Source: Oscillospiraceae bacterium (lineage in GTDB: Bacteria > Bacillota > Clostridia > Oscillospirales > Acutalibacteraceae). Taken from it: 64,000 nt of DNA. This document shows, piece by piece, positions 30,832 through 45,613 of the stretch (position 1 is the stretch's first letter; each line of letters opens with the position of its first letter). The translations under genes were made by a program, and so were the position numbers. The DNA lies in NCBI GenBank assembly GCA_015065585.1, contig SVQC01000003.1, forward strand, positions 1,363 to 65,362, given 5' to 3'. The notes under the pieces were generated by a model. The model did not search any database, was not told where the DNA came from, and saw only the letters and a program-made list of their open reading frames with translations.

Positions 30832-30860
30832 TAGTTTTTTTTTAAAAATTATAAAAAAAT

Positions 30861-30898: not shown

Positions 30899-30901
30899 AA
30901 C

Positions 30902-31708
30902 TTAGATTTTAAATATTTTTTTTGCATTCAATCCTAACATTTTTTCCCGTTCTTCATGGGTAAACTCAAGAGATAAAAAGGTTTCCATTTCCCTTTTTGG
31001 AGACCACATAGGATAATCGGTACCAAAAAGAATTCTGTCCGCCCCGTATTTTTTCATAAGGGCATAAATCTCTTCCTTTTGTGTAAATCCGAAACAGGAA
31101 GAACAATCAACATAAAGATTTTTATATTCCGAAAGCTTTTCATAAGCTTCCTGCCACACCGACCAGCCTGCAAGATGAGCACCGATAAAGGTTAAATCCC
31201 TGAAAGTTTTAAGTATAGGTAAAATGCGATTTGGATTAGAATAATCGTAGCGGTAGTCACCGGTATGCATAAGCATTACAAGATTGTTTTCCTCACAAAG
31301 CGCGTATATCTCCATACATCTTTTATTATCGCACTCGAACTGCTGTATATCGGGATGAAGCTTTACACCCTTCAATCCTAGTTCTAAAAGATGTTTTACG
31401 TCGCCTTTTAAATCATCGCTATCAGGATGAAGCGTTCCAAGTCCCGTAAGCTTACCGTTATATTCGGTTACGGTCTTTGCAATAAACTCATTTATGCTTT
31501 TAACCTGATGAGGCGTTGTCGCCACCGATTGCACTATAAAATGGTCAACCCCTGCCTCGCTTCCCTGCGCTATTAAATCAGCCACCGTACCGCTACCCGC
31601 CGCAACTGTGTCATAAAATTTGTCAGTACCGGCAACAGCCTTTTGAGCGATTTTCTCAGGATAAATATGGCAATGAGAATCCACCGCATAAAATTTATTT
31701 TGTACCAT
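30902..31708 (-). CDS. Amidohydrolase_2-type metal-dependent hydrolase/decarboxylase family protein
   Basis: The DSHCHIYP N-terminal HxH motif and TIM-barrel-like pattern fit this family. The likely start is MVQNKFYAVDSHCH at 31708 after GGAGAA. The ORF track extends to 31750. Confidence 0.75.
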   Translation of the reverse strand: MVQNKFYAVDSHCHIYPEKIAQKAVAGTDKFYDTVAAGSGTVADLIAQGSEAGVDHFIVQSVATTPHQVKSINEFIAKTVTEYNGKLTGLGTLHPDSDDLKGDVKHLLELGLKGVKLHPDIQQFECDNKRCMEIYALCEENNLVMLMHTGDYRYDYSNPNRILPILKTFRDLTFIGAHLAGWSVWQEAYEKLSEYKNLYVDCSSCFGFTQKEEIYALMKKYGADRILFGTDYPMWSPKREMETFLSLEFTHEEREKMLGLNAKKIFKI

Positions 31709-31721
31709 TGTTTTCTCCGAA

Positions 31722-34223
31722 TTATTTAAGTCCCAATTTTTCGGCGGCATCTTCTCTCATTTTATATTTGAGAATTTTTCCTGCCGCATTCATAGGAAAT
31801 TTATCCATAAATTCTATATATCTCGGAACCTTATGACGTGCCATATTAGCTGAAATGTAGCCTTTAATTTCTTCCTCGGTCATAGTTTCGCCATCGTTAA
31901 GAATTATACAAGCCATAATTTCCTCGCCATATTGCTTATCAGGTACACCGATAACCTGAACGTCACTTACCTTAGGATTTGTGAATATAAATTCCTCTAT
32001 TTCCTTAGGATAAATATTTTCGCCACCTCTGATAATCATATCCTTAAGACGACCGGTAATGAGATAATTTCCGTCAGGTCTTCTGCAGGCAAGGTCCCCC
32101 GTATGAAGCCAGCCTTCTTTATCTATAGCCGCTTCAGTAGCCTTGGGCATTTTATAGTAGCCCTTCATAATATTATATCCACGGGCAACAAACTCGCCGT
32201 TGACACCATCAGGACAATCCTCTCCTGTTTCAGGGTCAACAATTTTACATTCTACGTTAGCAAAAGCGCTACCAACAGTTTCGGTTCGAACTTCTAAGGA
32301 ATCATACCAACTGCTCATAGTACATCCGGGAGAAGCTTCTGTCTGACCGTAAACAGATACAATTTCTTTCATATTCATAACTTCGGTTGCCTTTTTCATA
32401 AGGTCAGCAGGACAGTTAGAACCTGCCATTATGCCTACACGCATATATGAAAAATCGGTTTTATCAAAATCAGGATGCTGCATCATAGCAATAAACATAG
32501 TTGGTACACCGTTAAAGGCCGTAATATGCTCGTTATGAACACAAGCAAGAGAGGGCTTCGGTGAAAAATATGGCATAGGATACATTGTTGTACCGTGGGT
32601 CATAGATGCAGTCATAGACAGTACCATACCAAAGCAATGGAACATAGGCACCTGAATCATCATTCTGTCAGCGGTAGAAAGGTCCATATGGTCTCCGATA
32701 TACTTACCATTATTTACAACGTTATAATGTGTCAGCATAACACCCTTTGGAAATCCGGTAGTACCCGAAGTATACTGCATATTACAAACATCGTCTTTTT
32801 CAACAGCAGCCGCCAGTCTGTATACCTCTTCTACAGGGGTTTCAGCAGAACGTTCAACAGCCTCCTGCCATGTCATACAGCCTTTTTGTTTAAATCCCAC
32901 AGTAATAACATTACGAAGGAAAGGAAGTTTTTTGCTGTGCAAAGCCTTGCCCGATTTAATAGTTTCAAGTTCGGGGCAAAGTTTAGCAATTATTTCGCCG
33001 TAATCGGTATCCTTGCTTCCCTGAGTCATTATAAGGGTATGGGTATCCGATTGTTTAAGCAAATATTCTGCCTCGTGGATTTTATAAGCGGTGTTTACCG
33101 TAACGAGAACGGCACCGATTTTGGTAGTTGCCCAAAAAGCAATATACCACTGCGGTACATTAGAAGCCCATACGGCAACCTTAGAACCGGCTCTTACACC
33201 CATAGAAACAAGAGCTCTGGCAAAGGTATCCACGTCATCTCTGAACTGACTGTAGGTTCTTGTATAATCAAGCGTTGTATATTTAAAAGCATACTGGTCG
33301 GGAAATTCCTCAACCATTTTATCAAGCACCTGAGGAAAAGTAAGGTCGATAAGTAAATCCTTTTTCCACACAAATTTACCTGTATGACTTTTGTTATAAT
33401 AGAGGGTCGATTCTTTTTTAGAGGTGTCTCCGAACTGCTTCATAAAGTTTACAAACTGAGAGAAAATAATCTCCATATCATCAAGTTCCTCACACCATGA
33501 AGGGTCCCAAATAAGTGAGAAAAAGCCGTCGTAGTTAACACTTCTGAGGGCATTCATCATATCCTTAATAGGCAATTCACCCTCGCCTATGAGACAGTTC
33601 TCGTATGCACCGCCCACATTCTGAGCATCTCTGATATGTACGTGCTTAACATAAGCGCCAAGATTTTTAATAATCTGCTCAGCATCTTCTTTACCTACAA
33701 AAAAAGCTGAATACATATCAAGTGATGCCGCAAGACTATCGCTAGCAAAACGCTCAAGCATATCTCTTAAGAGTTCGGTATTTGAAAAAATACCCGAAGT
33801 TTCGAGAAGTAAGGTTACGTTTAATTCTTCAGCCTTATCAATTACCTTATCGATTATCGAGGCAACGTTCTTTACAGCTTCTTCTTTATCTTCAAAATCA
33901 CCTGCATGAAGACGAACAAAAGGTATTTTAAGCCTTTTAGCAATATCAGCACAAATATTAATTTCTTCTATACACTCATCAAAATCAGCCCTATCACCGA
34001 TATTACAGATAGTGTCTATACAAGGCAATGACAGTTTCTTTTCATAAAGCTTTCTTATGGTAGCGCCGGCTGTATGCTCGTGAAAAGCACCGTTTTTGTC
34101 GGTAAACAAAGGATTTTTTATATTATGAAGTTCAATTCCCTGAAACTTCAAATCTTTTGCAACATCACAAAACTCATCAAAGGATATATTGTGCCATCCT
34201 TTTGTGGAAAAGGAAAATTTCAT
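31722..34223 (-). CDS. Fusion protein: xylose-isomerase-like TIM barrel (AP_endonuc_2) domain + AMP-forming acyl-CoA ligase
   Basis: The N-terminal ~280 aa (GIELHN.., LLLETSG, HVHIRD) resemble sugar-phosphate isomerase/epimerase folds. The C-terminal ~550 aa carry YTSGTTGFPKGVMLTH, YGQTE, GWLHTGD and GRLKDMIIRGGENIYP. The ATG at 34223 lies 2 nt from the upstream stop and follows GAGGAGG. Confidence 0.85.
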   Translation of the reverse strand: MKFSFSTKGWHNISFDEFCDVAKDLKFQGIELHNIKNPLFTDKNGAFHEHTAGATIRKLYEKKLSLPCIDTICNIGDRADFDECIEEINICADIAKRLKIPFVRLHAGDFEDKEEAVKNVASIIDKVIDKAEELNVTLLLETSGIFSNTELLRDMLERFASDSLAASLDMYSAFFVGKEDAEQIIKNLGAYVKHVHIRDAQNVGGAYENCLIGEGELPIKDMMNALRSVNYDGFFSLIWDPSWCEELDDMEIIFSQFVNFMKQFGDTSKKESTLYYNKSHTGKFVWKKDLLIDLTFPQVLDKMVEEFPDQYAFKYTTLDYTRTYSQFRDDVDTFARALVSMGVRAGSKVAVWASNVPQWYIAFWATTKIGAVLVTVNTAYKIHEAEYLLKQSDTHTLIMTQGSKDTDYGEIIAKLCPELETIKSGKALHSKKLPFLRNVITVGFKQKGCMTWQEAVERSAETPVEEVYRLAAAVEKDDVCNMQYTSGTTGFPKGVMLTHYNVVNNGKYIGDHMDLSTADRMMIQVPMFHCFGMVLSMTASMTHGTTMYPMPYFSPKPSLACVHNEHITAFNGVPTMFIAMMQHPDFDKTDFSYMRVGIMAGSNCPADLMKKATEVMNMKEIVSVYGQTEASPGCTMSSWYDSLEVRTETVGSAFANVECKIVDPETGEDCPDGVNGEFVARGYNIMKGYYKMPKATEAAIDKEGWLHTGDLACRRPDGNYLITGRLKDMIIRGGENIYPKEIEEFIFTNPKVSDVQVIGVPDKQYGEEIMACIILNDGETMTEEEIKGYISANMARHKVPRYIEFMDKFPMNAAGKILKYKMREDAAEKLGLK

Positions 34224-34224
34224 A

Positions 34225-35604
34225 TTATGCCTCCTCGTAAACAATCTTGTTTACTGCACTAAGATAAGCGCGTATACTTGCGCCGATAATATCAGTAGAA
34301 ATACCGTTACCAGAATAAAGTTTACCGCCAAAACGAAGCTTAACAAGAGCGCTACCCATAGCCTCTTTACCCTCGGTAACCGATTGAATTTGGAAATCAT
34401 CAAGTTCGAAATGAGAACCGGTAACCTGCTCAATAGCAAGAAATGCCGCATCAATAGGACCGCTACCTATAGAAACACCCTGACAGATCTTTCCGTTCTT
34501 TTCCAGAGCGATTTGAGCGCTGGAAGAAATTATATTACCGGTGTTAACTACATAACTGATAAGTTTATATGTTTCAGGCACTTGTAAAGCAACGCTTGCA
34601 ATAATAGCATCCAGTTCCTTAGAGCCTACGTTCTTTTTCTCTGCAACACGCTTAAATTCATCATAAACCTTACTTTTATCTTCATCACTTAAATCATAGC
34701 CCAGTTTCAATACACTTGCCATAACGGTATTGATATCAGCGTCCTTATCAAGCTCAGCAACCTCTGTATTATCGGAAGCAGAAGCAGCAATTTTACCGAC
34801 TTTAGAGTTATCGCTAATCCATTTAATCTGCTTTATTATGCGATTAAGATTTGTATAATTAATGTTTGACTGAATAGCGAAAGAGTTGCCGCAATTTTTT
34901 ACCATTTCAACAAAAATCTCAAGAGGTACGGCACCGCTGTTCACATTAGTCTTCACTATCGAAACACCATTTCTTACAGCTAAAGTTGCAGAAGCTACAG
35001 CCATACCGTTTTTATTGTCACAAAAAACGCCGGTTTCACAAGGCACTTGCTGACAAATTTTCTTAGCAAAATCAGCAAATTCATCAGGCATCATAGTTTG
35101 GGCAGCGCTGTCATAAAGAGAAATTGCAGTAGCACCCGCTTTAACGGCAGTATTTAAAGCGCTGATAAGAAAATCTTCTTCTCCACGGGTAGCATCAATA
35201 GCGCAGAACTCAACATCTTCTACCTTTTCCTTCGCAAAAGAAATCATCTTTTCAATAAGCAAAAGCATTTTATCAGGCTTTTTATGACAAACATACTCCA
35301 TACCAACGGGAGAAACAGGAAGCTCAACTCTGATGCGCTTATTATTCGCATTAGAAAGAGCGAGAACGGCATTATTGATGCTTTCCTCACTCATACCTGC
35401 GCATACAGACAATATTCCCTTTTTAACAAAGGAAGAAATAGTCTTAACAAGCAGTATGTCGGTTCTTGCATTTTCAATAGTGCCGAGTTCAATAATGTCA
35501 ACGTTAAGATTTTCAAGCTGTCTTGCAATTTCAATTTTCTCCTTAAAACTGTAGTTTCCCTCAACGTGAGCCAGTGTAGTGTCGGCAATTTTGATTTTTC
35601 TCAT
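34225..35604 (-). CDS. 2-isopropylmalate synthase-like protein with degenerate catalytic motifs and intact LeuA-type C-terminal domain
   Basis: It has a DRE-TIM (HMGL-like) N-domain, but TTLAHVEGN stands in place of TTLRDGEQ, and VFCDNKNGMAVASATLAV in place of HxHNDxGxAxAN. The C-terminal segment (GSGPIDAAFLAIEQVTG..ALVKLRFGGKLYSGNGISTDIIGASIRAYLSAVNKI) matches the LeuA regulatory domain. Confidence 0.75.
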   Translation of the reverse strand: MRKIKIADTTLAHVEGNYSFKEKIEIARQLENLNVDIIELGTIENARTDILLVKTISSFVKKGILSVCAGMSEESINNAVLALSNANNKRIRVELPVSPVGMEYVCHKKPDKMLLLIEKMISFAKEKVEDVEFCAIDATRGEEDFLISALNTAVKAGATAISLYDSAAQTMMPDEFADFAKKICQQVPCETGVFCDNKNGMAVASATLAVRNGVSIVKTNVNSGAVPLEIFVEMVKNCGNSFAIQSNINYTNLNRIIKQIKWISDNSKVGKIAASASDNTEVAELDKDADINTVMASVLKLGYDLSDEDKSKVYDEFKRVAEKKNVGSKELDAIIASVALQVPETYKLISYVVNTGNIISSSAQIALEKNGKICQGVSIGSGPIDAAFLAIEQVTGSHFELDDFQIQSVTEGKEAMGSALVKLRFGGKLYSGNGISTDIIGASIRAYLSAVNKIVYEEA

Positions 35605-35637
35605 AAAAACGCTTCCTATTCTAAAAATTTCTTTTAT

Positions 35638-35905
35638 AAAAAAAGTCCCTGAAACAAAAGTTTCAGGGACGAAAATAAATTCGCGGTACCACCCTAATTA
35701 CCGTAATATACGGTCACTCGGTAAGACTCCAACAAGCCTTTAGCCATGGTAACGGGGCTAGCCGTAACCGCTTACTTTATATTTCGGCAGTTCTGCTCCG
35801 GAATGAGACTTACTTTATATCACCGTACCGACTCTCACCAACCGTCAGTTCTCTGAAAACAGCGCATATAAAGAATAATTCCTTCATCGCATTTAAAAAT
35901 TTTTA
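35638..35905 (-). promoter_or_regulatory. T-box riboswitch leader, specifier CUC (Leu)
   Basis: Minus strand shows the GA/K-turn GCGAUGAA..GGAGCA and the AG bulge AGAGA (35850-35854). The distal hairpin is ACUGAC-GGUUGGUGAGA-GUCGGU. The specifier loop ..GUAAGU-CUC-A-UUCC places the codon at 35805-35807. The T-box sequence AGGGUGGUACCGCG is at 35682-35695. The terminator GTCCCTGAAAC-ttttg-TTTCAGGGAC plus seven T is at 35638-35670. Confidence 0.88.
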
Positions 35906-35908
35906 TCC

Positions 35909-35937
35909 ATTATAACATTGACTTTTTGTTTTGTCAA
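35909..35937 (-). promoter_or_regulatory. Consensus sigma-A promoter (TTGACA-17 bp-TATAAT) of the Leu T-box operon
   Basis: Minus strand reads TTGACAaaacaaaaagtcaatgtTATAAT. The -35 box starts 15 nt after the ilvE stop. Confidence 0.75.
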
Positions 35938-35952
35938 CACTTATTTTGAAAA

Positions 35953-37017
35953 TTAATCAATAGGACAAGTCCAACCAAAAGTATCTTCAATATTACCCCA
36001 CTGTATACCGGTAAGAGTATCATAAAGATGCTGGGTAACCTCTCCGATTTTTCCGCCGCTAACCTGATGCTTTACACCCTTATAGCAAAGTTCGCCAATA
36101 GGAGAAACAACAGCGGCAGTTCCGCAACCCCAAGCTTCTTCAAGAGTGCCGTCATTCATAGCGGTCTCAAGCTCGTCAACGCTTAAAAGTCTTTCGCTAA
36201 CCTTAAAGCCTTCTTTTCTCAATACTTCAAGGCAGGATTTTCTTGTAATACCGGGAAGAATAGAGCCCGAAAGCATAGGAGTAACAATTTCCCCGTTAAT
36301 TTTGAACATTACGTTCATAGCGCCTACTTCTTCAATATACTTTCTTTCTACACCGTCAAGCCAAAGTACCTGTGAATAACCTTGCTTCTCTGCTCTTTCA
36401 CCTGCACGGTTACTGGCGGCATAGTTACCGCCGCACTTTGCATAACCTGTACCGCCACGAACAGCACGAACATCCTGGTCTTCTATCATAATTTTAACGG
36501 GGTTAATTCCCTCTTTATAATAACTGCCTACAGGAGAAGCTATTATAACAAAGGTGGCGTTATGTACGGCATGAACCCCTAAGGTTTCATCATTGCCGAA
36601 CATAAACGGGCGAAGATAAAGCGAAGTCCCGGGAGCACTTGGTGTCCAATCCTGCTCAAGTGCAACAAAGGTCTTAAGAGCCTCCATAGCATCTGCTTCA
36701 TCAAGCTGAGGAAGACAAAGTCTGTCAGCAGAGCTGTTCATACGGCGGATATTTTCAATAGGACGGAAAAGCTGAACCTTACCGTCTTTTCTTCTATAAG
36801 CCTTAAGGCCCTCAAAGATTTCACTGCCGTAATGAAGAACGGTTGAAGCGGGATGTAAAGAAATATTTTCAAAAGGAACTATTCTTGCGTTATACCAGCC
36901 CTTTTCTTTGGAATAGTCCATCATAAGCATATGGTCGGTAAAATATTTACCAAAGCCTAAAACACTGCTGTCAGGTTTTTCCTTAGGACAGGTTGTTTTT
37001 GTTATAGAAATATTCAT
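35953..37017 (-). CDS. ilvE: Branched-chain amino acid aminotransferase
   Basis: 354 aa, fold-type IV aminotransferase of the long Firmicutes type (..LHYGSEIFEGLKAYR.., GGTGYAKCGGNYAAS, GITR). Confidence 0.9.
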   Translation of the reverse strand: MNISITKTTCPKEKPDSSVLGFGKYFTDHMLMMDYSKEKGWYNARIVPFENISLHPASTVLHYGSEIFEGLKAYRRKDGKVQLFRPIENIRRMNSSADRLCLPQLDEADAMEALKTFVALEQDWTPSAPGTSLYLRPFMFGNDETLGVHAVHNATFVIIASPVGSYYKEGINPVKIMIEDQDVRAVRGGTGYAKCGGNYAASNRAGERAEKQGYSQVLWLDGVERKYIEEVGAMNVMFKINGEIVTPMLSGSILPGITRKSCLEVLRKEGFKVSERLLSVDELETAMNDGTLEEAWGCGTAAVVSPIGELCYKGVKHQVSGGKIGEVTQHLYDTLTGIQWGNIEDTFGWTCPID

Positions 37018-37035
37018 AATCTATTTCTCCTTATA

Positions 37036-37569
37036 TCAGTTTTCAGCACCAATCTGCATAGCCTTGCGGTTTATTTCAGCCATATCAGCACGTTTTGCCG
37101 ATATAACCTTTGCAAGAGCAGCATCAACGCTTTCCTTTTCATAGTCGTTAATTTTGCTGAGCACCTTACCTACAATAATCATATTGGCAAGCGTTGGCAT
37201 ATTATTATCACTTGCAAGCTTAGTTGCAGGGATATAGAACACCTTAACGTCATCTCTTAAAACTTTTCTTTCAATAAGAGTAGAATCAAGGAATATCATA
37301 CCACCGGGAGCAACGGTGGATTCATATTTATCAAGAGAAGGAAGATTCATTGCAATAAGCACATCAGGTTTTGAAACTATAGGAGAACCTACGGGCTCGT
37401 CACTAACGATAACGCTACAACTGGCTGTGCCGCCACGCATTTCAGGGCCGTAAGAAGGAAGCCAGCTTACCTGCTTATCGTCGATAAGACCTTTATAAGC
37501 CATAAATTTTCCGGCAAAAAGAATACCCTGACCGCCGAAACCCGAAAATAAGAACTGTGTAGTAGCCAT
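37036..37569 (-). CDS. 2-oxoacid:ferredoxin oxidoreductase, gamma subunit
   Basis: 177 aa starting [17 protein letters not shown], typical of POR/KOR/VOR gamma subunits. It is translationally coupled to the beta subunit. Confidence 0.88.
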
Positions 37570-38324
37570 TATTCTTCCCCCTTTTCTGCGCTTCTGTCTT
37601 TATAAACGCCAAGCGGATAGTAAGGAATCATTTTTTCGTCAATCCACTCTAAAGCCTTTTTCGGAGTCATGCCCCAGTTGGTAGGACAGGAAGAAATAAC
37701 CTCAACAAGCGAAAAACCTTTTCCCTCTATCTGATTTGTAAAGGCCTTCTTAATAGCCTTCTTGGCATTTTTAATATTTTTAACGTTATTAACGGTAACT
37801 CTTTCAAGGTACTCAGGACCGTCAAGCTTAGAAAGCATTTCGCAAACCTTGACGGGATAACCACAAAGATTAACGTCTCTGCCGTAAGGAGAGGTCTGAG
37901 TTACCTGACCGGGAAGTGATGTTGGAGCCATCTGACCGCCGGTCATACCGTAAATAGCATTATTAATAAAAATTACTGTGATGTTTTCATTACGGGCGGC
38001 GCTATGAACAGTTTCAGCCATACCGATAGAAGCAAGGTCGCCGTCGCCCTGATAAGTGAATACAATATGATTTTCGGGGTCGGCTCTCTTAACACCGGTT
38101 GCAACAGCAGGAGCGCGTCCGTGAGCAGCCTCAATCATATCACAGTTAAAATAATTATAAGCCATAACAGAACAGCCTACTGGGGCAACACCAATAGTTT
38201 TGCCTTCAATACCAAGCTCGTCAATAACCTCGGCAACAAGACGGTGAACTATACCGTGTGTGCAACCGGGACAATAATGCATAGGCACATCTGTAAGTGC
38301 ATGAGGTTTATCAAAAACTATCAT
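37569..38324 (-). CDS. 2-oxoacid:ferredoxin oxidoreductase, beta (TPP-binding) subunit
   Basis: CPGCTHG cluster ligands, the TPP motif YQGDGDLASIG..NNAIYGMTGGQ. Confidence 0.9.
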   Translation of the reverse strand: MIVFDKPHALTDVPMHYCPGCTHGIVHRLVAEVIDELGIEGKTIGVAPVGCSVMAYNYFNCDMIEAAHGRAPAVATGVKRADPENHIVFTYQGDGDLASIGMAETVHSAARNENITVIFINNAIYGMTGGQMAPTSLPGQVTQTSPYGRDVNLCGYPVKVCEMLSKLDGPEYLERVTVNNVKNIKNAKKAIKKAFTNQIEGKGFSLVEVISSCPTNWGMTPKKALEWIDEKMIPYYPLGVYKDRSAEKGEE

Positions 38325-39397: not shown

Positions 39398-39612
39398 TAC
39401 CTTTCTACCTTAATAATACAGTCAGGACACATTGTAGCGCAGAAAGCGCAACCGATGCAAGCGTCAATATTAGCCGCTTCTACGGGATGATGCCCCTTTT
39501 TGTTGATTTTGTCAGCTGCGAGAATTAAAACCTGTTTGGGACAGGCGTCAACACAAAGACCGCAGCCTTTACAACTATCAGTTTTAAAAGTTAACTTTGC
39601 CAAATTAAACAC
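39397..39612 (-). CDS. 2-oxoacid:ferredoxin oxidoreductase, delta subunit (2x[4Fe-4S] ferredoxin-like)
   Basis: 71 aa with two CxxCxxCxxxCP motifs (CKGCGLCVDACP, CIGCAFCATMCP). It overlaps the alpha start. Confidence 0.88.
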   Translation of the reverse strand: MFNLAKLTFKTDSCKGCGLCVDACPKQVLILAADKINKKGHHPVEAANIDACIGCAFCATMCPDCIIKVER

Positions 39613-39659
39613 TCCTTAGCAAATTTATATATTCGAAAGCACAAATTATTTTGTGTAAT

Positions 39660-40331
39660 CTATAAAATTTTGTCCTGCAATTTTAAGCAGAAAAGATTAT
39701 CAATTTTTCCTTGTAATTCACTGAACAATTCTTCCTTAACTGAAGTAAAAACAACGGGAAGATTAGTTACTTTGCTTATGCTATTTGCATATTCTACCGA
39801 ATACATTACGTCGTTTGCCGTAGTTTCCTCACCTAAATTCGAATTATTAACAATGCCCGTAAACTTCATTCTTGCCGCCGCTTCAATTTCACACATTACT
39901 TCTATTAATGAATCGACATCACGGGTCAAAGGGCGGAAGGAATTAACAACCATAAGCATTTCGTAATTGTTTTCCTCTTTAATTTTGTCGGAAATCCTGC
40001 CCAGTACCAAAGCGCCGCGGTCATCTCCGCCTATATCAAGAATACATTTTAAACTTTTATCATCAGTCACCGCGTACATATCCTGCGGAAGCGCGGGTAT
40101 ATCTACATTTGAATTAGCGTAATCAGAACATATAAGCCTTATGCCCTTCTGATTTAAAAGCTGACTGCTGTCCTTAGTTCTGAAATAAGGATTAACAATA
40201 TCAAGGTCGGCAAGGGCGACATTATCATAGGTTTCTTTGATTTTTACAGCCGCGTTAACTGCTATATTGGTTTTACCGCTACCGTAGTGTCCACAGAAAA
40301 GTATAAGCCGTTTATCAAACATAAATGTCAC
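39660..40331 (-). CDS. P-loop NTPase (SIMIBI class, MinD/ParA/CooC-like), function unknown
   Basis: Walker A-like motif GHYGSGKTNIAVN, then DLDIVNPYFR and DIGGDDRG. It sits inside the operon between the synthetase and the oxidoreductase genes, with gaps of 15 and 47 nt. Confidence 0.7.
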   Translation of the reverse strand: MTFMFDKRLILFCGHYGSGKTNIAVNAAVKIKETYDNVALADLDIVNPYFRTKDSSQLLNQKGIRLICSDYANSNVDIPALPQDMYAVTDDKSLKCILDIGGDDRGALVLGRISDKIKEENNYEMLMVVNSFRPLTRDVDSLIEVMCEIEAAARMKFTGIVNNSNLGEETTANDVMYSVEYANSISKVTNLPVVFTSVKEELFSELQGKIDNLFCLKLQDKIL

Positions 40332-40346
40332 CTGCCTTTGCCTTAA

Positions 40347-42635
40347 TTATAACTTATTACGCTGAATTTTTCCGCTGGTAGTTTTAGGAAGACTTTCCTT
40401 GAAAACTACGATACGGGGATATTTATACGGAGCAGTTCTGTCCTTAACGTATTTTTGAATTTCCTTTTTAAGTTCTTCTGTAGGTTCAGTTCCCGAAACA
40501 AGCACGATACTTGCCTTAACGACCTGTCCTCTGACTTCATCGGGAGCAGCAGAAACACCGCACTCAAGAACATAAGGAAGTTCCATAATAACGCTTTCTA
40601 TTTCAAAAGGTCCGATACGGTATCCTGAGGACTTGATAACGTCATCAACTCTGCCCACATACCAATAGAAACCATCTTCATCGCGCCAAGCGGTATCACC
40701 GGTATGATAATAACCGTCACGCCACGTATCCTTTGTTTTTTCCTCATCACCAAAGTAACAGGAAGCAAGACCGCAAGGCAAACCATTATTTATATTAATA
40801 ACGATTTCGCCCGTCTCACCGACAGGAACATCATTACCGTCTGCATCTATAATATGAACGTCATAAATAGGAGCAGGTTTACCCATTGAACCGATTTTGT
40901 GAGGCGCACCAGTCATATTACCTATTATCATGGTACTCTCGGTCTGACCGAAGCCTTCCAGAATCTGAAGTCCAGTAATCTTTTCAAACTGACGGTAAAC
41001 CTCGGGATTAAGCGCCTCACCCGCAGTAGTCATATGCTTAACCGAAGATAAATCATACTGAGAAATATCCTGCTTTATAAGCATTCTGAGCATAGTAGGA
41101 GGTGCACAGAAAGTGGTAATGTTATGCTTAGCAAACATAGGCAGTATCTCTGCCGCATCAAAACGGTCAAAGTCATATACAAATATGCCTGCCTCACAAA
41201 GCCATTGTCCGTAAATTTTACCCCAAGTAGCCTTAGCCCAACCCGTATCGGAAATGGTAAAATGAAGACCGTCAGGATCCACACAATGCCAATACTTAGC
41301 TGTATGAAAATGTCCTAGAGGATACTTATAATTATGAGCTGCAATTTTAGGATAACCCGAAGTACCCGACGTAAAATACATAAGCATAAGGTCTTCGCCG
41401 CAAGCCGTATCTTCAGTCCGGTTATAGTGAGTACTGTAAAGGGTGTATTCCTCATCGAAGGTACGCCAGCCATCTTTAGTACCGTTAACGATTAATTTAT
41501 TAACAAGCTGTGGATTGTTTTTTGCCGCAATATCAACCTGATTAGCAGTGTCGCCGTCAGCAGTACAGATAATTGTAGTTACTCCCGCTGATTTAAAACG
41601 GTAGTCAAAATCGTGTTCAAGCAACTGATTAGTTGCAGGAATTGCAATAGCGCCAAGCTTATTAAGGGCGATAATAGAAAACCAGAACTGATAATGCCTT
41701 TTAAGCACCAGCATAACGCGGTCGCCTTTTTTTATACCTATGGATTTAAAATAGTTAGCGCACTGATTAGAAGCTTTCATTATATCCTTAAAGGTAAAAC
41801 TGCGTTCTGCACCGTCCCTTGAAATATGAAGCATCGCTCGCTTATCAGGGGTTTTTTTAGCTATGGCATCAACTACATCGAAGCCGAAATTAAATTTATC
41901 GGTATTTTTAAACTGTACAGAAATTGGTGTACCGTTTTCATTCTCGGTAACGTCAACGTATTTATGGTAAACGCGCTCTTTGGTATCCTTAACTCTTACC
42001 TTAGGCTCTAAAACAGCCTTTGCGGGAATGAGTTCTGGAATAGGCTCGCCTGTAGGATTAAGAACTATAGCGTAGAAAAGACAGTCTTTTCCGCCGATTG
42101 CTATCATACCGTGAGCAACGTCACTATCGTAATAAATACTGTCCCCAGGGCCTAATATTTCCTTATGTTCACCTACCTGAACCATAAGCTGACCCTCAAT
42201 AATTATATCAAGTTCCTGACCCGCATGAGTGGTAAGCTCAATATCCTTACCCTGAGCTTCCTCGCTATAAATATTGCGAACGTAAAGAGGCTCGGCAATA
42301 CGATTCTGGAAAGCATAAGCAAGGTTATAATATGTCATACCGTGAGCCTGAGCAATTTTTTGACCCGAGCCTGCACGGGTAACGGTATAGGATTTAAGGG
42401 TAGGACTGTAACCCTCAATAATATCGGTTACATTAACATTAAGGGCTAAAGCGCAACGATAAATAAAGGCAAAATTTAAATCGCTGTTACCGTTTTCACA
42501 CTCTATATATTCACTTGTAGTTACAGCGGTTTTTTGTGCCATTTCCTCAACAGTAAGACCTTCGATTTCGCGAAGTTCTCTGATACGCCCCGCCATTTCT
42601 TTGATTTTAAAGTCTAATCCTGTAATCTGTTCCAT
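40347..42635 (-). CDS. Fusion protein: XRE-type HTH + cupin (PuuR-like) + ACSM/MACS-type medium/short-chain acyl-CoA synthetase (paralog A)
   Basis: The first ~70 aa are an HTH_3 domain (IRELREIEGLTVEEMAQKTAVTTSEYIECENG). Residues ~110-190 form a cupin (ELDIIIEGQLMVQVGEHKEILGPGDSIYYDSDVAHGM). The rest is AMP-forming synthetase: FTSGTSGYPK, ISDTGW, GFGQTE, YHTGDTAWRDEDGFYWYVGRVDDVIKSSGYRIGPFEIES, TAPYKYPRIVVFKESLPKTTSGKIQR. Confidence 0.88.
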   Translation of the reverse strand: MEQITGLDFKIKEMAGRIRELREIEGLTVEEMAQKTAVTTSEYIECENGNSDLNFAFIYRCALALNVNVTDIIEGYSPTLKSYTVTRAGSGQKIAQAHGMTYYNLAYAFQNRIAEPLYVRNIYSEEAQGKDIELTTHAGQELDIIIEGQLMVQVGEHKEILGPGDSIYYDSDVAHGMIAIGGKDCLFYAIVLNPTGEPIPELIPAKAVLEPKVRVKDTKERVYHKYVDVTENENGTPISVQFKNTDKFNFGFDVVDAIAKKTPDKRAMLHISRDGAERSFTFKDIMKASNQCANYFKSIGIKKGDRVMLVLKRHYQFWFSIIALNKLGAIAIPATNQLLEHDFDYRFKSAGVTTIICTADGDTANQVDIAAKNNPQLVNKLIVNGTKDGWRTFDEEYTLYSTHYNRTEDTACGEDLMLMYFTSGTSGYPKIAAHNYKYPLGHFHTAKYWHCVDPDGLHFTISDTGWAKATWGKIYGQWLCEAGIFVYDFDRFDAAEILPMFAKHNITTFCAPPTMLRMLIKQDISQYDLSSVKHMTTAGEALNPEVYRQFEKITGLQILEGFGQTESTMIIGNMTGAPHKIGSMGKPAPIYDVHIIDADGNDVPVGETGEIVININNGLPCGLASCYFGDEEKTKDTWRDGYYHTGDTAWRDEDGFYWYVGRVDDVIKSSGYRIGPFEIESVIMELPYVLECGVSAAPDEVRGQVVKASIVLVSGTEPTEELKKEIQKYVKDRTAPYKYPRIVVFKESLPKTTSGKIQRNKL

Positions 42636-42662
42636 AAATATATCTCCGTTTTTATGTGGGCG

Positions 42663-42945
42663 AATAAAAACACCCGCCCCAAAGTAATGCCTTTGAGACG
42701 AGTGGTAAATTAGATTTCACACCCGCGGTACCACTCAAATTGCGGAAATCCGCCACTCTTGGAATCTAACAATTCCTATGCATTAACGCAGCAATCACGG
42801 AGGGGTTCTACTCATATAAAATACTTTCTTCCCCTCAGCTCAGAAGCTACAAACACGAAATCCTATCCTGACGGTTTTCACCTGCCACCGTCTCTCTGAA
42901 AGAAGGTTTTTCACGTCCTCTTCGTCAAAGCCTTTACTGACTGCT
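42663..42945 (-). promoter_or_regulatory. T-box riboswitch leader, specifier read as GUA (Val)
   Basis: Minus strand shows GA motif GACGAAG..CUUCUGAGC, AG bulge AGAGAG (42892-42897) and distal hairpin ACGGU-GGCAGGUGAAA-ACCGU. The specifier loop ends ..UUU-GUA-G-CUUC, with the codon at 42848-42850. The T-box sequence UUUGAGUGGUACCGCG is at 42724-42739. The terminator ACUCGUCUCAAAG-gcauua-CUUUGGGGCGGGU plus a U-run is at 42663-42703. Confidence 0.82.
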
Positions 42946-42947
42946 AT

Positions 42948-42976
42948 ATTTTATCACAAAATTCAGACATTGTCAA
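42948..42976 (-). promoter_or_regulatory. Sigma-A promoter (TTGACA-17 bp-TAAAAT, TG-extended) of the Val-T-box operon
   Basis: Minus strand reads TTGACAatgtctgaattttgtgaTAAAAT. The -35 box begins 30 nt after the stop of the upstream paralog. Confidence 0.7.
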
Positions 42977-43006
42977 TATTTCTTTTATAAAGGCGAAAAT
43001 TATGTT

Positions 43007-45274
43007 TTAAAGTTTGTTTCGTTGTATTTTTCCACTGATAGTTTTTGGCAATTCATCCTTAAATACAACAATTCTGGGATATTTATAAGGTGCGGTATGT
43101 TCCTTAACATATACCTGTATTTCTTTCTTAAGTTCTTCGGTAGGTTCTGTACCCGGAAGAAGCACGATACTAGCCTTAACGACCTGTCCTCTTACTTCAT
43201 CGGGAGCAGCAGAAACACCGCACTCAAGAACATAAGGAAGCTCCATAATAACGCTTTCTATTTCAAAAGGTCCGATACGGTATCCTGAGGACTTGATAAC
43301 GTCATCAATACGGCTGACATACCAGAAATATCCATCCTCATCGCGCCAAGCTGTGTCACCTGTATGATACATACCGTCATACCAAGCTTCATTTGTCTTT
43401 TCGTCATCAAGATAGTACTCCTTGAAAAGACCACAAGGAATACCTTCCTTGGTGCGAACAACAATTTCGCCAACCTCACCGTCAGCAACGCTGTTACCAT
43501 AAAGGTCAACTATATCAATATCATACTGAGGTGATGCTTTACCCATAGCGCCGATTTTGGGTGTAGTACCACTTAAGTTAGCAATAGTAAGGGTAGTTTC
43601 GGTCTGACCGAAGCCTTCCATAATCTGAAGTCCCGTAGCTTCCTCAAACTGACGGAAAACCTCAGGATTAAGAGCTTCACCTGCAGTTGTCATATGATGA
43701 ATTGAAGAAAGGTCATACTTTGAAAGGTCACTCTTTACAAGCATTCTGAGCATTGTAGGCGGAGCGCAGAAGGTAGTAATATTGTATTTGGCAAACATAG
43801 GCAAAATTTCATCTGCGTCAAAACGGTCAAAATCATAAACGAAAACCGCGCCTTCACACAGCCATTGTCCGTAAAGCTTACCCCATAGGGATTTACCCCA
43901 ACCCGTATCAGAAATAGTAAGATGTAAACCGTCTCTTTCACAACAATGCCAATATTTTGCAGTAACATAGTGACCTAAGGCGTAGGTATGCTTATGAGCC
44001 GCCATTTTTGGATTACCGGTTGTTCCTGAAGTAAAGAACATAAGAGCAATGTCCTCACCGCAAGAAGCATTTTCTTCTCTTTCGTATTTACCGGTATAAA
44101 GCTTATATTCACCGTCAAAATCGTGCCAACCGTCACGCTTTCCGCCAACCAAAATAAGATTTTTAACGCTTTCACAGTTTTTTGCGGCGCGCTGAGCAAT
44201 TTCTGCAGTATCACCGTCAGCGGTACAAACAAGAGCATTTACCCCTGCTGCATTAAAGCGGTATTCAAAATCGTGTTCCTTAAGCTGATTTGTAGCCGGA
44301 ATAGCCACAGCACCGATTTTGTGCAGTGCTACCATACAGAACCAAAACTGATAATGCCTTTTAAGAACAAGCATTACTTTATCGCCTTTTTTAATTCCTA
44401 AAGAAGTAAAATAGTTAGCGCACTGGTTAGAAGCTCTTTTTATATCCTTAAAGGTAAAACGGCGTTCGTTTTTATTCTTATCAATATGTAGCATTGCTAG
44501 TTTGTCAGGATATTTATCGGCAATTTCATCAACAATGTCAAAGCCGAAATTGAAAATATCTGTATTTTTAAAGTTTATATCAAGAAGCTCTCCGTTTTCG
44601 TTTTCGGTAGTATTAATAAACTTTTCACAAACAAGCTTTTCAGACTTTTTAGCAGAAGCAATACTCTTTCTAACAGTTTCTTCCTTAGTATTATCACCAG
44701 ATAGTACCACAGCACAGAAAACACAGTCTTCCCCACCGATAGCTATCATTCCGTGAGGTGTAGAGCTGTTATAGTAAATGCTGTCACCCTCGTTCAAAAT
44801 TTCGGTATGAGCGCCAATCTGTACCTTTAAGGAACCGCTTAAAACAATATCGAACTCCTGACCCGAGTGGGTAGTAAGCTGAATAGGTTTGTTCTGCTGA
44901 GCAGCGGAATATTCATATCTTACCCAGTAAGGCTCGGCAATTTTATCTCTGAATTTAGGAGCAAGATTTTTAATATCGATACCGTCTTCTTTAGCGGTAG
45001 ACTGACCCATTCCCTTTCTTGTCACAGTATAGCTAGAGAGACGGGCGGAATGGCCCTCTAAAAGCTCGGTTAACTCTACGTCAAAAGCAAGTGCGCACTT
45101 GTGAATAAAGGAGAACGGAATATCGGCATTAGCAGTTTCGTAAGAAATATATTTATCAGCACCAACTTCGGTTTTTTCAGCCATTTCCTCTATAGACCAA
45201 CCCATAATTTCGCGCATTTCCTTTATACGCGCGGCGATTTCCAGTAATTGTTCTTTTGCTGTGTTGGTTTTCAT
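43007..45274 (-). CDS. Fusion protein: XRE-type HTH + cupin + ACSM/MACS-type acyl-CoA synthetase (paralog B)
   Basis: Same three-domain layout as 40347-42635. By eye it is roughly two-thirds identical overall, the C-terminal ~110 aa are nearly identical and the HTH-cupin part is more diverged. Motifs: FTSGTTGNPK, ISDTGW, GFGQTE, GDTAWRDEDGYFWYVSRIDDVIKSSGYRIGPFEIES. Confidence 0.88.
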   Translation of the reverse strand: MKTNTAKEQLLEIAARIKEMREIMGWSIEEMAEKTEVGADKYISYETANADIPFSFIHKCALAFDVELTELLEGHSARLSSYTVTRKGMGQSTAKEDGIDIKNLAPKFRDKIAEPYWVRYEYSAAQQNKPIQLTTHSGQEFDIVLSGSLKVQIGAHTEILNEGDSIYYNSSTPHGMIAIGGEDCVFCAVVLSGDNTKEETVRKSIASAKKSEKLVCEKFINTTENENGELLDINFKNTDIFNFGFDIVDEIADKYPDKLAMLHIDKNKNERRFTFKDIKRASNQCANYFTSLGIKKGDKVMLVLKRHYQFWFCMVALHKIGAVAIPATNQLKEHDFEYRFNAAGVNALVCTADGDTAEIAQRAAKNCESVKNLILVGGKRDGWHDFDGEYKLYTGKYEREENASCGEDIALMFFTSGTTGNPKMAAHKHTYALGHYVTAKYWHCCERDGLHLTISDTGWGKSLWGKLYGQWLCEGAVFVYDFDRFDADEILPMFAKYNITTFCAPPTMLRMLVKSDLSKYDLSSIHHMTTAGEALNPEVFRQFEEATGLQIMEGFGQTETTLTIANLSGTTPKIGAMGKASPQYDIDIVDLYGNSVADGEVGEIVVRTKEGIPCGLFKEYYLDDEKTNEAWYDGMYHTGDTAWRDEDGYFWYVSRIDDVIKSSGYRIGPFEIESVIMELPYVLECGVSAAPDEVRGQVVKASIVLLPGTEPTEELKKEIQVYVKEHTAPYKYPRIVVFKDELPKTISGKIQRNKL

Positions 45275-45292
45275 AATAATCTCCCTTTCATT

Positions 45293-45575
45293 TTAAAAAA
45301 TAAAACCCGTCTCAAAGAATTACTTTGAGACGGGTGTAACAACATACACTCGCGGTACCACTCAAATTGCGGGAATCCGCCACTCTTGGAATCTAACAAT
45401 TCCTATGCCTTTACGCAGCAATCACGGGAAACGTCTACTCGGTATACTTTCGGGCTTCCGGCTCAGAAGGGATGGGTCTTGTAAGAATTCGTATTACCGG
45501 TTTTCAGCAACCACCGGCTCTCTGAAAATACAAAAACTTGACCGTCTTCGTCATAGCTTTTAAAAATTTATGTAA
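45293..45575 (-). promoter_or_regulatory. T-box riboswitch leader, specifier read as AUC (Ile)
   Basis: Minus strand shows GA motif GACGAAG..CUUCUGAGC, AG bulge AGAGAG (45518-45523) and distal hairpin CCGGU-GGUUGCUGAAA-ACCGG. The specifier loop ends ..CCC-AUC-C-CUUC, with the codon at 45471-45473. The T-box sequence UUUGAGUGGUACCGCG is at 45351-45366. The perfect 13-bp terminator ACCCGUCUCAAAG-uaauu-CUUUGAGACGGGU plus UUUUAUUUUUU is at 45293-45335. Confidence 0.82.
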
Positions 45576-45577
45576 AA

Positions 45578-45606
45578 AGTATAACACCACTTTTTACACT
45601 TGTCAA
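45578..45606 (-). promoter_or_regulatory. Sigma-A promoter (TTGACA-17 bp-TATACT) of the Ile-T-box unit
   Basis: Minus strand reads TTGACAagtgtaaaaagtggtgtTATACT. The -35 box begins 7 nt after the GH2 stop codon. Confidence 0.7.
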
Positions 45607-45613
45607 GAGTTTT

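Follow-up and report, generated by a model that had tools for sequence, protein, structure and literature searches.

Organization of the locus

The window, i.e., the whole 64,000-nucleotide stretch of DNA analysed here, derives from an uncultured rumen/gut Clostridia bacterium, and its coordinates are used throughout. A gene cluster on the minus strand, to which all features described below belong, spans 30863–45606 and is organized as three transcription units in series. Unit 1 encodes an HTH-cupin::acyl-CoA synthetase; unit 2 encodes a paralogous synthetase followed by a P-loop protein, the delta, alpha, beta and gamma subunits of a 2-oxoacid:ferredoxin oxidoreductase, and the aminotransferase IlvE; and unit 3 encodes a LeuA-like protein, a TIM::acyl-CoA ligase and an amidohydrolase. 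This gene content, as first read from the DNA, agrees with domain and family profile matches, and sequence scans and Rfam searches assign to each unit a consensus promoter, a T-box leader and a terminator of its own. Indeed, every point of the first-pass annotation that was tested computationally came out as proposed. An intrinsic terminator (30863–30898; hairpin 30898–30863, 16 pairs, T-rich tail) closes the cluster.

In a scan for promoter-like sites and terminator-like hairpins, the best three promoter-like sites in the region 30500–45800 are exactly those starting at 45606, 42976 and 35937, in agreement with the TTGACA-17 bp promoter proposed ahead of each unit. Spacing is 17 nt in all three, and each −10 element is TG-extended: P1 (45578–45606, TTGACA-17-TATACT) and P2 (42948–42976, TTGACA-17-TAAAAT) match the consensus at 11/12 positions, and P3 (35909–35937, TTGACA-17-TATAAT) at 12/12. 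The UP-like A/T tract, −35 and extended −10 elements of P1 are kept across 45 orthologous leaders. The strongest three terminator-like hairpins (45335–45305, 42704–42671 and 35670–35645) belong to the T-box terminators of units 1 (45295–45335; 13-bp stem and U-tract), 2 (42661–42704; 14 pairs, TTTTTATT tail) and 3 (35635–35670). In all three leaders, the 5′ arm of the terminator overlaps the 3′ arm of the antiterminator as aligned by the covariance model, and the two structures are therefore mutually exclusive, as had been suggested.

T-box leaders and their specifiers

T-box leaders switch on the genes behind them when an amino acid is short, the uncharged tRNA stabilizing the antiterminator. 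Searches with cmscan against Rfam RF00230 (gathering score 93 bits) place leader 3 at 35662–35896 (132.3 bits, E = 3.7e-29) and leader 2 at 42691–42937 (95.6 bits, E = 1e-19); these two exceed the gathering score. Leader 1 (45323–45563) scores below it at 81.7 bits, but a local search matched the whole model (1–219) with E = 3.1e-18. The covariance alignments, named in advance as a test of the specifier reading, give branched-chain amino acid codons as the specifiers: AUC (Ile) in leader 1, GUA (Val) in leader 2 and CUC (Leu) in leader 3, followed by C, G and A, respectively. The C after the Ile specifier departs from the usual purine. The antiterminator bulge reads UGGU in all three leaders, as proposed.

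Acyl-CoA synthetases of units 1 and 2

The synthetases of unit 1 (43007–45274, 755 aa) and unit 2 (40347–42635, 762 aa) are 65% identical, and both combine HTH_19, Cupin_2 and AMP-binding domains. The closest solved structure is MacsMa from Methanosarcina acetivorans (PDB code 3ETC; E = 4.5e-178), the catalytic domain of which is very similar; a Gly in place of Trp414/416 of Acs and an alternate Trp are common to MacsMa and the window enzymes. The best NCBIfam model for both is MbcS, known from Staphylococcus aureus, with a score (440.6 bits for the Ile-gated enzyme) far under the equivalog cut-off of 850. In contrast with MacsMa and MbcS, the window synthetases carry an additional N-terminal HTH_19/Cupin_2 module of ~230 aa and occur as two paralogues with one T-box specifier each. 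Fusion of an N-terminal helix-turn-helix to an adenylate-forming enzyme is reminiscent of the biotin-protein ligase/repressor BirA; the likeness is one of architecture between unrelated families, and DNA binding and co-repression by the window synthetases are putative. No operator was found in the orthologous synthetase leaders.

Both reference enzymes favour α-branched acids and handle isovalerate poorly (PMC10455477, PMC10026030, PMC13584741). MacsMa prefers 2-methylbutyrate (PMC10455477), and MbcS has Km values of 5–10 μM for 2-methylbutyrate and isobutyrate and uses isovalerate only above 500 μM (PMC10026030, PMC13584741). The sole clade-specific residue of the catalytic domain, Gly460 in the Ile clade (as in MacsMa) and Ala467 in the Val clade, aligns with the pocket position Val310 of E. 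coli Acs, which pairs the larger acid, on the Ile side, with the smaller residue. Family profiles, the 3ETC comparison and tree position suggest the unit 1 enzyme as a candidate 2-methylbutyrate-CoA ligase and its unit 2 paralogue as a candidate isobutyrate-CoA ligase.

P-loop protein, oxidoreductase and IlvE

Downstream of the unit 2 synthetase lies a SIMIBI-class P-loop NTPase (39660–40331, 223 aa), assigned by family and structure comparison and encoded, in the window and relatives, always immediately 5′ of the delta subunit gene. Its predicted structure (pLDDT 86.6) resembles the SRP54/FtsY/HypB folds with TM scores of about 0.5–0.58. Family profiles assign the four oxidoreductase subunits: delta (39397–39612, 71 aa; ferredoxin-like, 2×[4Fe-4S]), alpha (38324–39397; POR_N and PFOR_II), TPP-binding beta (37569–38324; TPP_enzyme_C) and gamma (37036–37569; POR). 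The alpha subunit exceeds the cut-off of the NCBIfam 'VorB' subfamily (NF005507, 543.8 bits; cut-off 399); among solved structures, those of 2-oxoglutarate/'2-keto acid' enzymes are nearest to it by sequence. No NCBIfam equivalog cut-off is reached by the beta, gamma or delta subunit, and the substrate range of the enzyme is for these reasons unreadable from sequence. IlvE (35953–37017) is a branched-chain amino acid aminotransferase above equivalog cut-off (NF009897, 479 bits, cut-off 307; TIGR01123, 398.5 bits, cut-off 250).

Unit 3

The first gene of unit 3 (34225–35604), under the Leu T-box, encodes a protein with the HMGL-like barrel and LeuA_dimer domain of LeuA; it falls ~55 aa short of the length of bacterial LeuA. 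Conservation is good in the regulatory domain (mean identity among orthologues 68%, GxGP loop retained), and the DRE-TIM barrel is degenerate, as first noted: LRDGEQ is replaced by LAHVEG, HxH by FxD and E by I, and the catalytic residues are lost in 27/27 orthologues, where these positions are variable. Identity as LeuA (2-isopropylmalate synthase) was rejected because the metal ligands HxH and Glu and the Arg-Asp of LRDGEQ are absent and the protein falls below all NCBIfam LeuA cut-offs; it is instead a LeuA-derived pseudoenzyme and a candidate leucine sensor.

The next gene (31722–34244; start codon uncertain), which overlaps the stop of the LeuA-like gene, fuses a xylose-isomerase-like TIM domain to an ACSF2/FACL-type acyl-CoA ligase (AP_endonuc_2::AMP-binding). 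It scores 653 bits against PRK12583 (cut-off 832), and no characterized close relative was found in family-model and homology comparisons. Mean identity among orthologues is 77% in the AMP-binding part and 45% in the TIM domain, which is weakly similar to sugar 3-epimerases. Recruitment of a different ligase family for Leu fits the poor use of isovalerate by MbcS and MacsMa, which calls for a separate ligase, and the enzyme is a candidate isovalerate-CoA ligase. The last gene (30902–31750) encodes an Amidohydrolase_2 protein (Amidohydro_2) with an intact metal site, its residues D24, H26, H28, H132, H162, H192 and D245 being near-invariant. At two related loci (L033 and L040) the amidohydrolase gene lies 3′ of the gamma subunit gene instead of the ligase gene, and it is therefore not restricted to Leu.

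Conservation among relatives

The locus was compared across 80 species-level representative genomes of rumen/gut Oscillospirales, the relatives being metagenome-assembled genomes from rumen, caecum, rectum and faeces. Specifier and enzyme remain paired across this set. A midpoint-rooted NJ tree parts the synthetases into an Ile-gated clade of 50 (ACS_I; 46 with ATC) and a Val-gated clade of 80 (ACS_V; 70 with GTN). Among readable leaders, ATC is the specifier in 46/47 of the Ile clade and GTN in 69/74 of the Val clade; CTC or CTG was parsed in 20/23 Leu-module leaders and, after checking against the Rfam alignment, is present in at least 21/23, one of the remaining three having been misparsed as 'GGC' where the alignment has CUC. 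The bulge is TGGT in 147/147 leaders.

Within the 400 nt ahead of each gene, a T-box is present at 47/49 ACS_I, 74/76 ACS_V and 23/26 LeuA-like genes, and at none of the 44 IlvE, 59 P-loop or 55 delta subunit (VorD) genes. In the window and all relatives, the Val T-box is the only one ahead of the oxidoreductase and IlvE. The order ACS_I-ACS_V-P-loop-VorDABG-IlvE recurs among the fetched loci. The LeuA-like/TIM::ligase pair is present in 27/80 loci, where it lies before, after or inverted, and every one of these loci keeps it linked to the oxidoreductase/IlvE cluster.

A proposed route from branched-chain acids to amino acids

The genes and switches together are best read as a salvage pathway, and the locus is probably a branched-chain amino acid salvage/biosynthesis cluster that proceeds from acid to acyl-CoA, 2-oxoacid and amino acid. 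Each unit would be transcribed from a strong sigma-70-type promoter into a transcription-attenuating T-box leader, where uncharged tRNA-Ile, -Val or -Leu would pair with the AUC, GUA or CUC specifier and its free 3′ end with the UGGU bulge, stabilizing the antiterminator and allowing RNA polymerase to enter the genes. The MACS/MbcS-type synthetase of unit 1 would activate 2-methylbutyrate, its unit 2 paralogue isobutyrate, and the unit 3 ligase of another family isovalerate. With reduced ferredoxin and CO2, the δαβγ oxidoreductase supplied by unit 2, presumably working reductively, would carboxylate the acyl-CoAs to 2-oxo-3-methylvalerate, 2-oxoisovalerate and 2-oxoisocaproate, which IlvE from the same unit would transaminate to Ile, Val and Leu. 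Sensor-like modules, i.e., the HTH-cupin parts of two synthetases and the LeuA regulatory domain beside the third ligase, may additionally place the ATP-consuming step under end-product feedback. The simple route assigns no part to the P-loop protein, TIM domain, amidohydrolase or HTH-cupin modules, and the cluster alone leaves unexplained how starvation for Ile or Leu only would raise the Val-gated oxidoreductase and IlvE.

Such oxidoreductases can work in either direction and are best known in the oxidative one, in amino-acid fermenters, and an adjacent IlvE would also suit breakdown of branched-chain amino acids to acyl-CoAs for energy, with the synthetases unrelated or recycling. We consider such a catabolic role very improbable: T-boxes raise expression when the amino acid is lacking, which fits synthesis and not degradation, AMP-forming synthetases cost two ATP equivalents and conserve no energy, and family profiles reveal among the cluster genes neither a phosphotransacylase/kinase nor an ADP-forming synthetase for ATP gain. 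The primers of branched-chain fatty acids usually come from amino acids via IlvE and a keto-acid-oxidizing enzyme. The synthetases could mainly supply such acyl-CoA primers for membrane lipids when amino acids are scarce, with amino-acid synthesis secondary or absent; this is the documented role of MbcS, their best family match, under Ile, Leu and Val limitation (PMC10026030, PMC13584741). Of the 47 loci where sequence extends 6 kb or more downstream of the Val-gated synthetase, 14 indeed lack a nearby oxidoreductase. In the other 33, mostly with IlvE, and in the window, however, the oxidoreductase follows directly 3′ of this synthetase; if IlvE and the oxidoreductase ran in the oxidative direction while Val is scarce, they would break down the very amino acid in shortage, and lipid demand hardly accounts for three separate switches, each specific to one amino acid. 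A primarily lipid role is accordingly unlikely, in distinction to MbcS, but the two uses are compatible, as one acyl-CoA pool could feed both.

Somewhat less doubtful is a different role for unit 3, namely that it processes another leucine precursor (a conjugated, lactone or hydroxy form, or an HMG/3-methylglutaconate-type acid) or frees leucine from a derivative, rather than plainly activating isovalerate. Three of its four domains are unnecessary for isovalerate activation, the metal site of the amidohydrolase is complete, and the weak epimerase likeness of the TIM domain and the lack of a characterized close relative of the ligase would suit such a role. Against this, the fusion is conserved chiefly in its AMP-binding part, the LeuA-like barrel has lost its catalytic residues throughout, the module is consistently linked to the oxidoreductase/IlvE cluster, the amidohydrolase is not restricted to Leu, and the weakness of MbcS-type enzymes with isovalerate itself calls for a dedicated ligase.

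Relation to known systems

T-boxes already known to control branched-chain amino acid supply include the one for Leu in the Bacillus subtilis ilv-leu operon and those that gate ileS, valS, leuS and branched-chain amino acid transporters. As there, RF00230-class leaders make uncharged tRNA the signal that turns on genes supplying its amino acid; however, the known targets are acetolactate/isopropylmalate pathway genes, tRNA synthetases or transporters, whereas here a ferredoxin oxidoreductase and IlvE are gated along with acyl-CoA ligases, by three serial leaders with three specifiers and a different ligase each within one cluster. Annotating a downstream gene from the specifier codon is established practice, according to the main text of a T-box regulon survey, which makes no mention of oxidoreductase, CoA, ferredoxin, ilvE or aminotransferase (PMC2494555). 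A literature search found no published description of the three-T-box ligase/oxidoreductase/IlvE wiring.

Rumen bacteria reportedly carboxylate isobutyrate, 2-methylbutyrate and isovalerate reductively to Val, Ile and Leu (Allison, Bryant and co-workers, 1960s–1980s), and methanogens have anabolic 2-oxoisovalerate:ferredoxin oxidoreductases. The proposed route shares overall chemistry and habitat with the rumen process; that work was physiological and enzymological, and no gene cluster or regulation tied to it was found in the literature search. In Prevotella, the reverse reaction was described in 2020 as 'not proven yet' at the enzyme level (PMC7709123). If the proposed salvage route is correct, the cluster would provide a genetic basis for the branched-acid-to-amino-acid pathway known physiologically since the 1960s.

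T-box leaders, promoters and terminators

Each unit of the cluster opens with a T-box leader on the minus strand. The leader of unit 3 (35662–35896) scores 132.3 bits against Rfam RF00230 and carries the specifier CUC followed by A (Leu); that of unit 2 (42691–42937) scores 95.6 bits and carries GUA followed by G (Val); and that of unit 1 (45323–45563), detected in a local RF00230 search with 81.7 bits (E 3.1e-18), carries AUC followed by C (Ile). The curated gathering score of RF00230, 93 bits, is exceeded by the first two and missed by the third, although the whole model aligned. The first-pass annotation had proposed this model as a check on the three leaders; it recovers all of them, the unit 1 leader only below the threshold, and the codons AUC, GUA and CUC, which the annotation had read from the sequence, are the same in the covariance alignments. 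The K-turn, the codon-bearing specifier loop, the AG bulge and the distal loop of Stem I are aligned at high posterior probability in all three leaders. All of them contain the T-box sequence (A/G)GUGGUACCGCG, and the UGGU antiterminator bulge claimed earlier is likewise present in each. In every leader the 3' arm of the antiterminator is also the 5' arm of the terminator, so that the two structures compete, in agreement with the mutually exclusive folds first proposed. Read-through of each leader is predicted to depend on the uncharged cognate tRNA.

The earlier assignment of promoters with 17-bp spacing ahead of each unit also holds: the three best promoter-like sites of 30500–45800 are located at 35937, 42976 and 45606, conform to the type TTGACA-17-TATAAT with a TG extension, and lie about 40 nt upstream of one T-box leader each. 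The T-box terminators are the three strongest terminator-like hairpins of the same interval, and a fourth hairpin (30898–30863) closes the cluster. Within the cluster, no terminator separates the end of a unit from the promoter of the next.

Two local features of unit 1 deserve mention. A perfect 10-bp inverted repeat, TGTAAAAAGT and ACTTTTTACA separated by 8 nt, covers the -10 element of the unit 1 promoter P1 (45571–45598, minus strand); it is not kept as a sequence among relatives, several of which have inverted repeats in the promoter spacer. The base after a T-box specifier is usually a purine; here it is C, both in the window (45472–45475) and in 25 of 47 orthologues, with A in 21. The T-box-like 12-mer GGTGGTACCGGT at about 19189, within ftsZ (18446–19525), was dismissed as a chance match, being coding sequence with no Stem I.

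The window is chromosomal, includes the dcw cluster as well as rpoB, leuS and smc, and derives from the MAG of an uncultured member of the Ruminococcaceae/Oscillospiraceae, whose proteins include MBE6728822–MBE6728832. Among its Pfam-scanned open reading frames, ilvE is the only ilv/leu gene. A distance of 3.6 kb separates the cluster from the leucyl-tRNA synthetase gene leuS (49194–51602, minus strand) upstream of it; at the Rfam gathering score leuS has no T-box, and it is followed by a tRNA gene with anticodon UUU (Lys; 49018–49090, minus strand). Between these and the cluster are an AraC-type regulator gene (48130–48915, plus strand) and a GH2 beta-mannosidase-like gene (45614–48037, minus strand) that ends 8 nt before the -35 element of P1.

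Pairing of specifier and enzyme among relatives

A scan of one genome per species with the unit 2 synthetase as query returned at least 600 matches, of which the best 80 were taken for comparison. These 80 all belong to uncultured Oscillospirales or Christensenellales from rumen, hindgut or faeces; the wider spread of the candidate is indicated by the full set of at least 600 matches in these species-representative genomes and by more than 8000 protein clusters. The first-pass annotation had suggested a test for co-occurrence of the locus; the fetched loci share a recurring gene order of Ile-clade synthetase, Val-clade synthetase, P-loop protein, oxidoreductase delta, alpha, beta and gamma subunits, and IlvE. 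Of the 47 loci in which 6 kb or more of sequence follows the Val-clade synthetase, 33 contain the oxidoreductase and the other 14 have none nearby. The pair of LeuA-like protein and TIM::ligase (the TIM-barrel acyl-CoA ligase of unit 3) occurs in 27 loci, after, before or inverted relative to the other genes, usually with the amidohydrolase next.

In the 400 nt ahead of the respective gene, a T-box is present for 47 of 49 Ile-clade, 74 of 76 Val-clade and 23 of 26 LeuA-like genes, and for none of 44 IlvE, 59 P-loop, 55 delta subunit, 27 TIM::ligase and 18 amidohydrolase genes. T-box-like matches in the VorG genes of two loci (L014 and L018) are coding sequence and were rejected as leaders. Rfam at its gathering score is unusable for counting, as many of the orthologous leaders for Ile and Val escape it, and a MAFFT alignment of the three window leaders misaligned the specifier loop; it was replaced by Rfam covariance-model alignments and a parse anchored on the K-turn helix, which matches the Rfam reading in the three window leaders and was used for the orthologous specifiers. 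The strict form of the parse left 29 leaders unread, and the relaxed form leaves a few misreads.

ATC is read in 46 of the 47 readable Ile-clade leaders, a valine codon (GTA, GTC, GTT or GTG) in 69 of 74 Val-clade leaders, and CTC or CTG in 20 of 23 leaders of the Leu module by parse; one of the three exceptions among the last, that of L015, is a misparse as "GGC" where the Rfam alignment shows CUC. The bulge is TGGT in all 147 orthologous leaders. In a midpoint-rooted neighbor-joining tree, 130 synthetases split cleanly into Ile and Val clades. The specifier–enzyme pairing, conserved across relatives, is therefore old and kept by selection, and no coincidence of this genome.

Several loci deviate individually. 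The Leu-module leader of L029 (1250–1494) has CCC, a Pro codon, at the specifier in the Rfam alignment, and a similar leader in L041 has CTC; the former may reflect a single-base change or an assembly error. L033 and L040 are arranged as LeuA-like protein, TIM::ligase and Ile-clade synthetase, the last two 47–63 nt apart with no T-box between; some of their internal leaders are lacking in part, and the amidohydrolase gene comes after that of the gamma subunit, not after the TIM::ligase. In these two loci and in L047, a carbon-nitrogen hydrolase gene (PF00795, nitrilase/omega-amidase superfamily; L033 7857–8639, L040 11129–11914, L047 12289–13077) separates the Val-gated synthetase from an IlvE that is more divergent; speculatively, such a hydrolase could pull transamination forward. 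A Val-clade synthetase with its Val T-box occurs by itself in L009, L034, L039, L045, L050, L053, L058, L060, L062–L064, L066 and L068, where the fetched flanks contain neither oxidoreductase nor IlvE.

The two HTH-cupin synthetases

The unit 1 protein (755 residues) comprises HTH_19, Cupin_2, AMP-binding and AMP-binding_C domains, and the unit 2 synthetase is a paralogue of 762 residues with 65% identity to it. For both, the best NCBIfam model is MbcS, the branched short-chain acyl-CoA synthetase of S. aureus, with 440.6 and 429.8 bits; these scores are about half of the equivalog cut-off of 850, and neither protein is therefore an MbcS equivalog. Their catalytic part is very close to MacsMa from Methanosarcina acetivorans (PDB code 3ETC, E 4.5e-178), which prefers 2-methylbutyrate and for which the roles of pocket residues have been described (PMC10455477). 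MbcS accepts 2-methylbutyrate and isobutyrate at micromolar Km, and isovalerate only above 500 uM (PMC10026030, PMC13584741).

Like MacsMa, the synthetases have Gly in place of Acs Trp414/416, the residue by which Acs closes its acetate pocket, and their EGFGQTE motif aligns with DTWWQTE of E. coli Acs. The alternate pocket tryptophan (Trp259 in MacsMa) is kept, within a TAKYW motif common to MacsMa. Fixed differences between the Ile and Val clades amount to 12 positions, only one of which falls in the 510-residue catalytic part: Gly460 in the Ile clade, which is Gly also in MacsMa, versus Ala467 in the Val clade. Its counterpart in E. coli Acs is Val310, which we take to be one of the four acetate-pocket residues, so that the larger acid would get the smaller side chain. 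Homology, the T-box specifiers and the Gly/Ala difference together suggest that the Ile-clade and Val-clade enzymes probably activate 2-methylbutyrate and isobutyrate, respectively.

The other 11 clade-specific residues are located within the HTH/cupin region (residues 10–117; window 44690–45274 and 42021–42635), which suggests that divergence between the paralogues has mainly affected a module for sensing or DNA binding. A search for an HTH operator upstream of 45, 68 and 23 leaders revealed conservation only of a UP-like tract, the -35 element and the extended -10 element.

The oxidoreductase, IlvE and the P-loop protein

The oxidoreductase subunits are encoded together as delta (71 residues, two [4Fe-4S] clusters), alpha (POR_N and PFOR_II), beta (TPP-binding) and gamma (POR), an order kept in relatives. 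The alpha subunit scores above the cut-off of the NCBIfam 'VorB' model NF005507 (543.8 versus 399), and beta, gamma and delta fall below all equivalog cut-offs. The nearest solved alpha subunits are those of a '2-keto acid' enzyme and of 2-oxoglutarate enzymes, and substrate specificity cannot be read from the sequence. IlvE passes its equivalog cut-offs (NF009897, 479 versus 307; TIGR01123, 398.5 versus 250).

The P-loop protein (223 residues) is always encoded directly before the delta subunit in the fetched loci. Sequence searches with it returned nothing, and the fold search, based on a confident predicted fold (pLDDT 86.6), yielded only the generic class of SIMIBI NTPases, to which the model assigns it; the nearest folds are SRP54/FtsY and HypB of the ATPase type, with TM scores of about 0.5–0.58. 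A role as an Fe-S carrier or as a NifH-like electron injector was considered and is unlikely, because the protein has a single conserved Cys.

The unit 3 proteins

The LeuA-like protein (459 residues) consists of HMGL-like and LeuA_dimer domains and scores below every LeuA cut-off. Its description as degenerate in the first-pass annotation is substantiated by the loss of catalytic residues: LRDGEQ is changed to LAHVEG, ED to ID and HCH to FCD, so that the Arg-Asp pair, the xED glutamate and the metal-binding HxH residues are lost, and these positions vary among 27 orthologues. The regulatory LeuA_dimer domain (PF08502, E 1.5e-31, positions 4–130 of 131) is the best conserved part, with 68% mean pairwise identity versus 44% for the barrel, and keeps the GxGP loop. 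The stop codon either overlaps the start of the downstream TIM::ligase gene or lies directly next to it. We hypothesize that the protein is a LeuA-derived pseudoenzyme that may act as a leucine sensor for the TIM::ligase.

The TIM::ligase (840 residues) is a xylose-isomerase-like TIM barrel fused to an acyl-CoA ligase. The ligase part is PRK12583/ACSF2-like (653 bits versus a cut-off of 832) and thus from a different family than the two synthetases; no characterised close relative was found. The poor performance of the synthetase family on isovalerate would be a simple reason for a ligase of another family in the Leu unit. The TIM domain is weakly conserved (45%) and shows a faint likeness to sugar 3-epimerases. 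The Amidohydro_2 protein keeps the full HxH/His/His/Asp metal site; among solved structures, the one closest to it is that of an uncharacterised protein.

Discussion

The cluster brings candidate genes for acid activation, acyl-CoA carboxylation and transamination together under common regulation, and the set recurs in relatives. The chemistry that leads from branched acids to amino acids is classical in rumen bacteria and methanogens. In the proposed route, uncharged tRNA-Ile, -Val or -Leu would permit read-through of the matching leader, and the ligases would form 2-methylbutyryl-, isobutyryl- and isovaleryl-CoA; the oxidoreductase would then carboxylate these acyl-CoAs reductively with reduced ferredoxin, and IlvE would yield the amino acids. 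We infer the reductive direction from the logic of T-box control: expression that rises when the amino acid is short fits synthesis and would be harmful for degradation. Synthesis is further favoured by the AMP-forming ligases, which spend rather than conserve ATP.

The simple model has weak points. Here as in all relatives, it is only the Val leader that precedes the oxidoreductase and IlvE, and P1 transcripts run into the Val terminator. A shortage limited to Ile or to Leu would thus be expected to leave the levels of the shared enzymes unchanged, unless some transcripts escape termination, the genes exist in a second copy, or all three amino acids tend to run short at once. Other weak points are the 14 loci that have a Val-gated synthetase and no nearby oxidoreductase, the deviating layout of L033 and L040, and the lack of a specificity signal in the oxidoreductase sequence.

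A tentative and rather doubtful extension is two-tiered control, in which the T-box reads tRNA charging and every ATP-spending ligase has in addition a small-molecule sensor of its own. The HTH-cupin modules and the LeuA pseudoenzyme would then exert end-product feedback on the ligases, and the LeuA-like protein, translationally coupled to the third ligase, would be an enzyme recycled as an allosteric subunit devoted to another enzyme to which it is unrelated. Alternatively, the HTH fusions could provide BirA-like control of transcription by the enzyme itself.

It has long been established that rumen and gut Clostridia, cellulolytic ones among them, require isobutyrate, 2-methylbutyrate and isovalerate or profit from them, and the feeding of such "isoacids" to cattle is a practical matter; no assignment of the genes that turn these acids into Val, Ile and Leu was found in the searched literature. 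Each component has been described before: T-box control of branched-chain amino acid supply, enzymes of the MACS/MbcS type, ferredoxin oxidoreductases that work reversibly, and the pathway at the level of physiology. Their combination, i.e., three serial leaders with their specifiers, three acid-activating enzymes, a linked oxidoreductase and IlvE, the HTH-cupin::synthetase fusion and the LeuA pseudoenzyme, was not found in the open full-text literature searched, so that an earlier description is possible. The main text of a T-box regulon survey does not mention an oxidoreductase, CoA, ferredoxin, ilvE or an aminotransferase (PMC2494555), and a 2020 study describes the reverse route from branched acids to branched-chain amino acids as "not proven yet" and as possible in theory only, through EC 1.2.7.7 (PMC7709123).

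In the public annotation the synthetases are named "cupin domain-containing protein", the LeuA-like and P-loop proteins "hypothetical", and "amidohydrolase" also appears. The leaders bring an annotation of their own, as the specifier codon in front of each ligase identifies the amino acid which that enzyme would serve. For engineering, the cluster would supply natural Ile-, Val- and Leu-specific T-box parts and a Gly/Ala pocket switch; for uncultured Oscillospirales, it would improve metabolic models and auxotrophy predictions. As a concrete and widespread candidate, it links a physiological observation of some sixty years' standing to a set of genes that can be tested, and the old question can be addressed directly through three enzymes, a single oxidoreductase and the three RNA leaders.
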